IMG/VR virus record: IMGVR_UViG_2671180814_000016 | Direction: 5' to 3' (one strand) | From: a virus | Taxonomy: Duplodnaviria > Heunggongvirae > Uroviricota > Caudoviricetes | DNA: 11,321 nt | Shown: piece by piece, positions 896-1,639 of the stretch | How positions within the stretch are numbered: position 1 is the first letter of the stretch | How the letters are laid out: each line of letters begins with the position of its first letter | Notes under the pieces: generated by a model | Database searches by the model: none | Seen by the model: the letters and a program-made list of their open reading frames with translations, nothing else | Told to the model about the DNA's origin: nothing | Program-made: the position numbers and the translations under genes

Positions 896-930
896 ATTTG
901 TTCCTTTTTATTTTATTTATAGGGTTTACA

Positions 931-1494
931 ATGTCAGACCGTAACAATGATTTTTCTCTGTTAGTAAAATTGCTGAACGGATTTTTGAAGAAAGATGAGA
1001 TAAAAAAAAGACTATATTCTTTCGTGAAAAAAGAAACTAATGATTGGGAAAAGTGGCTGCAAATAGAATTTGCTCATTATCTAACTTCAAAAAGGAAGTA
1101 CGAGCTACATCGTGAAGTTACGATATACCTCGATCCAATAGATTATCCTGATAGTAAACTTGCTAAAGTAGATTTGATACTGCGTGAAAAATCCACACCC
1201 TCTGATGATTATATTTTTATTGAGTTTAAATGTACTAAAGGTGTAGTACCATTAGTTAGGGGCTTAAATGCTGACAAAAATAAAATTAGTGCTATAAGAC
1301 AGTGTAACTACAAAATGCGTAATTATCTTGGTGTCGGATTTCATCTTTTTTGTGAACCAGATGATATCGAGTTTATGGAAAAGTACGTAACTGAAGAACT
1401 TAAAGGCTCTTACGCCGTGTTTAAATTATGCGAGTGTCCAGTAAGATATAATTGCCAATGTGAATTTAATGAAATTGGTGTGGTACTTTTTTAA
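931..1494 (+). CDS. Hypothetical protein, possible PD-(D/E)xK / VRR-NUC-like nuclease fold with Cys-rich C-terminus
   Basis: ORF-track ORF 874..1494; the ATG at 931 (MSDRNNDF...) is the likely start because 874 would overlap the divergent terS start. Weak SD-like AGGG 6 nt upstream. Motif pattern E ([10 protein letters not shown]) ... D (AKVDLIL) ... ExK (YIFIEFK) ... Q (ISAIRQ) fits restriction-endonuclease-like spacing. C-terminal [11 protein letters not shown] cluster. Fold assignment is by motif only. Confidence 0.55.
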
Positions 1495-1639
1495 ATGCGG
1501 TGCGGGTATGATCATTTTGTTCACACACAATTGATTAAACCCGCTGCCGAAAACCCTCGATAGTACCGCCAGTATGGAGGGACCCATTGAATGCAATGGT
1601 TAATATACTTTGTAAGCTATATACAATGAATCATGAGTA

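Follow-up and report, generated by a model that had tools for sequence, protein, structure and literature searches.

A predicted PD-(D/E)xK-fold nuclease gene in a fixed slot between terS and a candidate packaging site of uncultivated enterobacterial temperate phages

The window analysed here is the whole 11,321-nucleotide stretch of the IMG/VR record IMGVR_UViG_2671180814_000016 (Caudoviricetes), and the locus in question comprises a small nuclease-like gene at 931-1494, the small terminase gene terS from which it diverges, and a conserved non-coding element at 1496-1585. The initial annotation had set the start of terS 35 base pairs (bp) from a divergent gene of 188 amino acids, and this arrangement stands, with the gap at 896-930 and a reading frame that runs from an ATG at 931 to a stop at 1494, giving 188 codons including the stop and a product of 187 amino acids. 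We propose that the locus holds an accessory PD-(D/E)xK nuclease cassette between terS and a probable cos site, with a role in exclusion or defence, a composite reading to which we would give an even chance. An accessory PD-(D/E)xK nuclease in a temperate phage is a known kind of gene; what is notable here is the slot beside terS and the packaging site, together with the candidate cos element. The features of the locus are as follows, with the strand given where one was assigned and with the basis of each assignment.

1-32: terminal 32 bp of an IS2 element, a 100% match to IS2 ends in phage and Escherichia coli records
33-435, minus strand: N-terminal ~134 codons of the large terminase gene terL (GpA family), cut by IS2; the translation matches the terL N-terminus of a relative, locus L002
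350-895, minus strand: terS, small terminase subunit, 181 amino acids; phrog_57 "terminase small subunit" at 1.3e-22
896-930: divergent intergenic gap of 35 bp containing both ribosome-binding regions, from the coordinates of the open reading frames (ORFs)
931-1494, plus strand: gene for a predicted PD-(D/E)xK-fold nuclease of 187 amino acids, with candidate catalytic residues E46, D81, E98 and K100 and a C-terminal CxC-x5-CxC; profile search, alignment, predicted structure and the ratio of nonsynonymous to synonymous substitution rates (dN/dS)
1496-1506: motif 1, TGCGGTGCGGG, with tandem TGCGG, 1 nucleotide (nt) past the nuclease stop codon
1498-1549, plus strand: stem-loop on the GCGGGT/ACCCGC repeat, with a CACACA centre; folding against dinucleotide shuffles
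1507-1545: AT-rich core of ~39 nt with a CACA(T/C)A(T/C)A centre; clade alignment
1546-1559: motif 2, GCCGAAAACCCTCG, clade consensus GCCGAAAACTCGCG; near-universal across loci
1560-1575: hypervariable spacer, 16-19 nt in the clade; clade alignment
1576-1585: motif 3, GGAGGGACCC, clade consensus GGAG(T/A)ACCT; clade alignment
1640-1942, minus strand: first gene of the variable cargo region, encoding a 100-amino-acid protein with a signal-peptide-like N-terminus; ORF list

The frame at 931-1494 is a real gene under purifying selection, with a dN/dS of 0.05-0.18 against alleles that are 86-95% identical. Searches with the protein recovered one E. coli chromosome, contigs from Logan and ENA, two contigs of metagenome-assembled genomes and 48 IMG/VR loci, and in all of these whose stretch has terS the nuclease gene adjoins terS and diverges from it (46/48 of the IMG/VR loci, the stretches of L032 and L058 being without terS). 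The slot is kept even by nucleases with no more than 29-38% identity to that of the window. The gap to terS spans 30-47 bp among close relatives and 68-110 bp among those more distant. This protein-recovered sample is biased by construction, and we therefore also used an alignment of terS and 80 terS-anchored viral loci. A profile of the nuclease family found the gene in 34/80 of these, always in the same slot, and did not find it in the other 46; when terS was clustered at 90% identity, 17 clusters had the nuclease throughout, 20 were without it and 1 was mixed. No other gene family was seen between terS and the element in the loci examined. From these comparisons the nuclease gene is best described as a moron, an accessory cassette of one gene, present or absent, that lies between terS and an element linked to it, and it appears as wedged between the two because the element stays with terS with or without the cassette. 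The initial annotation had offered a displaced packaging site or an inserted moron nuclease as alternatives, and the two now look like halves of one event, given the 34 loci with the gene and the 46 in which the element lies upstream of terS.

The interval 1495-1639 is non-coding and has the GC-rich patches first noticed there, with a GC fraction of 0.41 in 1401-1600 against 0.31-0.35 in flanking windows. The plan of the element within it is common to ~88 distinct loci when these are anchored on the most constant block, and the DNA after the nuclease stop codon is better conserved than the nuclease gene itself. Down to 32% protein identity, most loci with the nuclease have motif 1 exactly or with <=2 mismatches, as do all of the 55-95% alleles, and the most divergent alleles have TTCGG-type variants of it; the stop codon and motif 1 are 0-7 nt apart, or overlap in those most divergent alleles. 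In nuclease-free loci motif 1 occurs upstream of terS (e.g. L082 and L191) or in the form of TTCGG-type variants. Nearly all loci have motif 2, for which the clade plan is GCCGAAAAC(T)CGCG, either ~51 nt past the nuclease stop or 60-230 nt upstream of terS. The 46 nuclease-free terS-anchored loci, and likewise L002 and L082, carry an element of the same kind 20-240 nt upstream of the terS start. When 2.9 million viral contigs were searched for a 21-base composite of motifs 2 and 3, the 13 exact matches were all in this clade and adjoining terS. We assign the element to the terS side because it is found upstream of terS with or without the cassette and with a fixed internal spacing. A copy of TGCGGTGCGGG with 2 mismatches also lies at 10268-10278 on the minus strand, inside the recombinase gene at the far end of the window, and is within chance (14/200 shuffles give at least 2 matches).

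A search of 1495-1639 against Rfam returned nothing at E <= 1, promoter and terminator scans gave no signal above shuffle expectation, and a comparison of motifs 2 and 3 for dyad symmetry found no covariation beyond conservation (p = 0.4). The late promoter that had been expected at the locus did not materialise, the scan giving 4 promoter-like sites against 6.8 from shuffles. The best sigma-70-like match near the nuclease gene, CTGACA-16-TAAAAT (10/12) at 910-937 on the minus strand, points toward terS; its -35 hexamer overlaps the nuclease start codon, and the site is not kept in L004 and L005, which have other nuclease first codons.

The inverted repeat pointed out by the initial annotation, GCGGGT (1502-1507) and ACCCGC (1539-1544), forms the core of 16-nt arms at 81% complementarity, and the stem is made of motif 1 and the bases just ahead of motif 2. 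Folding z-scores against dinucleotide shuffles were -3.5 for 1485-1645 and -5.3 for the hairpin alone. Where each sequence was folded individually and a strong stem-loop was defined as z < -2 against such shuffles, 18/35 distinct nuclease-bearing loci and 2/37 nuclease-free loci had one, an association (Fisher p ~3e-6, run with denominators of 33 and 39, to little effect) that ignores the shared ancestry of the loci. Arm sequences vary by lineage with the pairing kept (the window, L033, L035 and L037). Covariation of the hairpin in a fixed register is weak across the clade, at most 47% paired over 8 columns, and the stem-loop is thus a property of a subset of loci and not of the whole element. 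Neither strand has a U-tract, which argues that this is not a canonical intrinsic terminator, and the terminator scan found no terminator there. The simplest reading of these sequences would be a 3' stem-loop with a function for the nuclease transcript, which it would either stabilise or keep from running into the packaging site.

Owing to its position, its conservation and a weak resemblance to the cos motifs of lambda, we think it fairly probable that the element at 1496-1585 is the cos-type packaging site of the clade. GpA-type terminases are cos enzymes whose sites normally lie just upstream of terS (PMC4669245), and this was taken together with a comparison of record ends, in which the left end of the genome record lies upstream of terS by 190 nt in lambda, 182 nt in HFM1, 81 nt in Arya and 77 nt in KA2-1; the lambda end is a known cohesive end and that of HFM1 is a cohesive end annotated by PhageTerm, and the record starts of Arya and KA2-1 are only assumed to be genome ends. 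Read in the orientation of terS, the window has GGGTCCC(TCC), 16 nt and then CGAGGGTTTTCGG, and lambda has the cosQ sequence GGGTCCT(TTCC), 35 nt that include the 12-nt cohesive end, and then CGCGGGTTTTCGC (bases 13-25), with the subsites defined as in PMC4669245. As in lambda cos (cosQ-cosN-I2-cosB; PMC4669245), the element is positioned just upstream of a Nu1-like terS and a GpA-type terL, has a GC-rich conserved block, and carries short motifs reminiscent of bases 13-25 and cosQ, ordered and oriented with respect to terS as they are in lambda; unlike in lambda, the interval between its two motifs is hypervariable.

Three points weigh against the cos reading. For the 12/15 match to lambda, ~0.5 chance occurrences are estimated in a free comparison of two regions of ~100-200 nt; the spacing between the motifs is 16-19 nt here against 35 nt in lambda, with no recognisable R-site repeats, which weakens the resemblance; and a CGCGGGTTTTCGC-like motif, considered as a general feature of GpA phages, was not found in Arya, KA2-1 or HFM1. 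The cosQ coordinates in lambda agree with the sequence comparison. The resemblance to lambda is accordingly offered as a lead and not as proof, and it could be due to chance. Contig ends of public assemblies, used as a proxy for genome ends, gave an inconsistent signal.

As the main alternative to cos, the element could be a transcription-control module of the late operon, a terminator or insulator combined with an activator or antiterminator site, with the packaging site elsewhere. Its place at the border between variable cargo and the structural operon would suit such a module, as would the stem-loop formed by part of it and the TATAAT-like sequence that often follows motif 3 on the plus strand (e.g. 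in L003, L005 and L042). We nevertheless regard this alternative as doubtful, since the invariant blocks are GC-rich and unlike sigma-70 hexamers in the direction of terS, the promoter and terminator scans did not rise above shuffle level and there was no match in Rfam, the strong stem-loop is absent from most nuclease-free loci while the motifs persist, and the customary location of the sites of GpA-type terminases, just upstream of terS, fits a cos site (PMC4669245).

For the protein itself, AlphaFold2 run on an alignment of close homologues gave a model with a pLDDT of 89.3 and a pTM of 0.85, in which helix 40-53 bears E46, strand 77-86 bears D81, and strand 93-102 bears E98 and K100, the core having the alpha-beta-beta-beta-alpha-beta topology of restriction endonucleases with the canonical PD-(D/E)xK layout. 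We are confident from this model that the window protein has the restriction-endonuclease PD-(D/E)xK fold, the nuclease fold that had been suspected at the outset; the scores settle the fold only and assign the protein to no named family. Close relatives make up only six clusters in an index of 5.8 billion proteins, and an exhaustive profile search returned 187 representatives at 50% clustering, nearly all of them stand-alone proteins of 175-200 amino acids. Residue statistics for this wider family were drawn from 87 of the 187 representatives (50% identity clusters), which are 19-44% identical to the window protein. E46, D81, E98, K100, W42 and D115 are invariant in 87/87 of them, and E40, Q44, E62, D68, K118, R130 and G136 nearly so, such that the catalytic-type motif set in this alignment is far beyond chance. 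The PD-(D/E)xK motif set proposed by the initial annotation is thus borne out, and its VRR-NUC-like label is not: the window protein has no such match in Pfam at E <= 0.1, and 0/87 relatives match VRR_NUC (PF08774). The only Pfam match at E <= 0.1 was to COX5A and is spurious.

The protein is presumably a small, metal-dependent DNA endonuclease, to judge from its modelled fold and invariant residues. Catalysis has been lost in some proteins of the PD-(D/E)xK fold, and the window protein might likewise be a non-catalytic DNA-binding protein such as a regulator; this is extremely unlikely, given that E46, D81, E98 and K100 are invariant in every representative, which is not expected of an inactivated fold. 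The predicted nuclease resembles the type II restriction-type PD-(D/E)xK enzymes R.SwaI (5tgq), BglI (1dmu), BstYI (1sdo), BglII (1d2i) and BamHI (1bam), and the nuclease domain of CinB (7esz) is also among the closest known systems. It differs from these nucleases in sharing only 6-16% sequence identity with them; a sequence search of the PDB with two profiles gave no match, and Foldseek against the PDB gave nothing at E <= 0.001. It further differs from restriction enzymes in having no partner methyltransferase, in being much smaller than most, and in having a three-helix N-terminus and a clade-specific CxC-x5-CxC tail. The cysteine cluster first noticed in the protein comprises C167-x-C169-x5-C175-x-C177 plus C101, C125 and C141; these cysteines are invariant in the close homologues, which are phage-borne alleles, but in the wider family only 5/87 representatives have them. 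On this distribution the tail and the three further cysteines appear to be a clade-specific addition, and the tail is probably a metal knuckle.

Concerning the history of the cassette, the mixed terS cluster contains L196, with the nuclease gene, and L201, without it, whose terS proteins differ in the first ~25 residues and are otherwise almost the same, and the alignment indicates that the nuclease gene has been exchanged together with the 5' end of terS. Measured over the same pairs of genomes, synonymous divergence (dS) is ~3x as high in the nuclease as in its neighbour terS, and allele types are interleaved along terS identity, as in L036, where terS is 77% and the nuclease 34% identical; we attribute the exchange to recombination because nuclease identity is decoupled from terS identity and because of this excess in dS. 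Comparison of terS of the window (350-895) with that of L036, L196 and L201 shows a mosaic in which the N-terminal 25-70 residues travel with the cassette and the element, and the C-terminal part is nearly identical between phages that differ at the N-terminus, so that recombination break points must lie inside terS. The N-terminal end of terS is likely the DNA-binding end, by analogy with gpNu1 of lambda.

The main rival to the preferred reading is a selfish, free-standing endonuclease of homing type, which would cut cassette-free relatives near the junction of terS and the element and would be copied along with its flanks during repair. A strict present/absent polymorphism at one intergenic position with highly conserved flanks is what such an enzyme would produce, and the flanks differ along with the cassette, as in the swapped terS N-terminus of L196 and L201; the decoupling of the cassette from terS, the decayed nuclease copies in L013, L061 and L062/L237, the restriction-enzyme fold, and the presence of a NUMOD4/HNH_3 gene in these phages all point the same way. 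Mosaic recombination of the ordinary sort, at conserved boundaries, accounts for these observations as well. Comparators include the free-standing Seg and Mob enzymes of T-even phages and the PD-(D/E)xK homing enzyme I-Ssp6803I. Like these, the nuclease occurs sporadically at a single, constant intergenic position bordered by conserved sequences, and its flanks are exchanged along with it; it differs in that very divergent alleles persist under purifying selection. We consider homing unlikely, since alleles at 29-38% identity share the slot under strong purifying selection, a pattern that long vertical retention with mosaic recombination would fit equally, since the sequence from terS to motif 1 is not conserved in empty sites and leaves no obvious target beyond the element, and since family members also occur as solitary chromosomal genes. 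In a related and distinctly unlikely version, a site-specific endonuclease cassette would have colonised the terS/cos junction of a whole temperate-phage clade as a selfish guard of the packaging site; during co-infection or induction it would cut cassette-free relatives at or near that site, so that rivals would be both excluded and converted to carriers, a homing-like drive acting at a site that every competitor must keep.

The preferred reading assigns the nuclease to exclusion or defence, and this functional part, taken alone, we hold as tentative and somewhat short of an even chance. The nuclease would be expressed from the prophage and would cut incoming or competing DNA, and thereby bring about superinfection exclusion or defence. 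We favour this role because of the moron architecture and the retention of the gene in dead prophages, where it is intact in the degraded prophages of the window, L001 and L005-7; because the cargo next to the element in relatives includes OLD-type nuclease, SMODS and DUF3800 genes; because an HNH protein of the window matches type IV restriction models; and because some of the distant homologues adjoin TIR, WYL and DUF2779 genes. The gene is on the strand opposite to the late genes and reads away from the structural operon. Several results weigh against the proposed reading of the locus. The nuclease has no family match in Pfam, PHROGs, NCBIfam or PADLOC, and the 87 relatives have no consistent match there; among known defence systems, PADLOC-DB v2 gave no match for the protein and no recurrent match in the 87 relatives; other distant homologues are solitary genes among chromosomal housekeeping genes; the promoter scan found no promoter for the nuclease; there is no visible methyltransferase or immunity partner, which leaves the discrimination of self from non-self without explanation; and to these are added the lack of a U-tract in the stem-loop and the blindness of its association statistic to ancestry. 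A type II restriction-modification system was rejected, there being no cognate methyltransferase beside the nuclease; there is no methyltransferase domain anywhere in the window, and the neighbours of the nuclease are terS and the small secreted protein.

A different function, suggested by the location, would be that of a packaging helper acting with the terminase in cos cleavage or in the removal of branches from concatemers, for which HNH proteins in HK97-like cos phages and endonuclease VII in T4 are precedents. The nuclease invariably adjoins terS and the element and is the only gene family ever in the slot, as would be expected of such a helper; set against this, 46/80 relatives lack the nuclease and still have terS with an element of the same kind, a GpA nuclease domain is already part of terL, the gene runs opposite to the late operon, and the nuclease is intact where terL is destroyed. 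A packaging helper is therefore very unlikely, and the nuclease is probably not part of the packaging machine. In HK97-like cos phages the terminase genes reportedly have HNH endonuclease genes as neighbours, and the window is like these phages in that a small nuclease gene directly adjoins terS and the candidate cos region; unlike the HK97 gp74-type HNH proteins, the window nuclease has a different fold, with no HNH match in Pfam, lies on the strand opposite to terS and is dispensable in more than half of relatives, and the terL of its clade carries a nuclease domain of its own.

The nuclease can also be compared with phage morons, accessory genes between core genes such as lambda bor and lom and the morons of HK97 and HK022. 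Like these, the nuclease is a single gene, present or absent, that runs counter to the late genes, has a stem-loop after it and persists in defective prophages; unlike them, it has an unusual slot, within the stretch that separates the probable packaging site from terS and always filled by the same family, it has no identified promoter, and its stem-loop is not a canonical terminator. Defence hotspots are said to occur in P2- and P4-like prophages, and the present locus is similar in having a variable, nuclease-carrying region beside the packaging genes of a temperate phage, in which relatives hold an OLD-type nuclease and SMODS; it differs in that the window nuclease lies outside the variable region proper, in a one-gene slot on the terS side of the element, and has no match to known defence models.

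These results add an undescribed family of small nucleases of predicted restriction fold, with 187 clusters at 50% identity and no model in four domain libraries, and they show that one clade of uncultivated enterobacterial temperate phages, among them a prophage fixed in Shigella sonnei, keeps a slot reserved for a single gene where its probable packaging site meets terS. They also yield a precisely delimited, clade-specific candidate cos site of ~90 bp that is directly testable. If the nuclease acts on competing phages or on empty sites, the conservation of a packaging site would be linked to conflict between phages; if it is a simple defence moron, it would be an ordinary addition to the catalogue.

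The window represents one arm of a defective prophage of the Shigella/E. coli type. The terL gene starts at 435 on the minus strand and its reading frame is truncated by IS2 after ~134 codons, which makes the prophage defective and unable to package DNA; intact terL homologues have GpA_ATPase and GpA_nuclease domains. The match of the window terS to Phage_Nu1 is weak (7.6e-5) and below the Pfam cutoff. Shigella sonnei 53G (HE616528.1) and CP026802.1 carry an identical 187-amino-acid nuclease and the same IS2/terL junction, and the identical nuclease is also found in prophages with an intact terL; L280 and L283 hold intact versions. A relative ~80% identical to the window arm was found in only 2/5,426 complete E. 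coli genomes. No tblastn match to terS was found among 50,697 cultured phage genomes, so that prophages and metagenomes are the only known sources of the lineage; the best terL match among cultured phage genomes is at 36% identity.

To the right of the element, the DNA differs between relatives (L001, L002, L270 and window 1640-5939), and the products encoded there include DUF3800, an OLD-type nuclease, a SMODS nucleotidyltransferase and small proteins that are secreted or membrane-bound; the region has the character of an accessory or defence hotspot, with the element as its boundary on one side. The 100-amino-acid protein encoded at 1640-1942 had no family match in Pfam, PHROGs, NCBIfam or PADLOC. 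Further into the window, the minus-strand gene at 6022-6765 encodes a 247-amino-acid HNH endonuclease (Pfam HNH at 3e-6; PADLOC type IV methyl-directed restriction models at 4.7e-7) with a weak match to the phosphorothioate-dependent restriction endonuclease family, and by these matches it is likely a defence gene of the cargo region. The 184-amino-acid protein encoded at 7812-8366 on the minus strand combines NUMOD4 and HNH_3, the architecture of a free-standing homing endonuclease, and L003, L280 and L283 have homologues of it in the corresponding position. A serine recombinase gene at 10034-11317 runs off the far end of the window.

A membrane-anchored protein encoded at 4541-5209 on the plus strand has an N-terminal block, GFEWGSVSDW, in common with the L002 genes at 15237-15800 and 15999-16625, which form a tandem pair adjoining an OLD-type ATP-dependent nuclease in this E. 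coli relative; a further copy at 783-1343 of L082 makes this a recurrent accessory family of the cargo region. The C-terminal half of the 183-amino-acid protein encoded at 3353-3904 on the minus strand weakly resembles EAL-type cyclic-di-GMP phosphodiesterases (NF008617 at 2.7e-5, far below cutoff, and phrog_32988 at 4e-4). An ORF of similar size lies at 1929-2585 of L082, with short stretches that look alike by eye, and in S. sonnei 53G the counterpart of the 3353-3904 gene is split by an IS21-type element.

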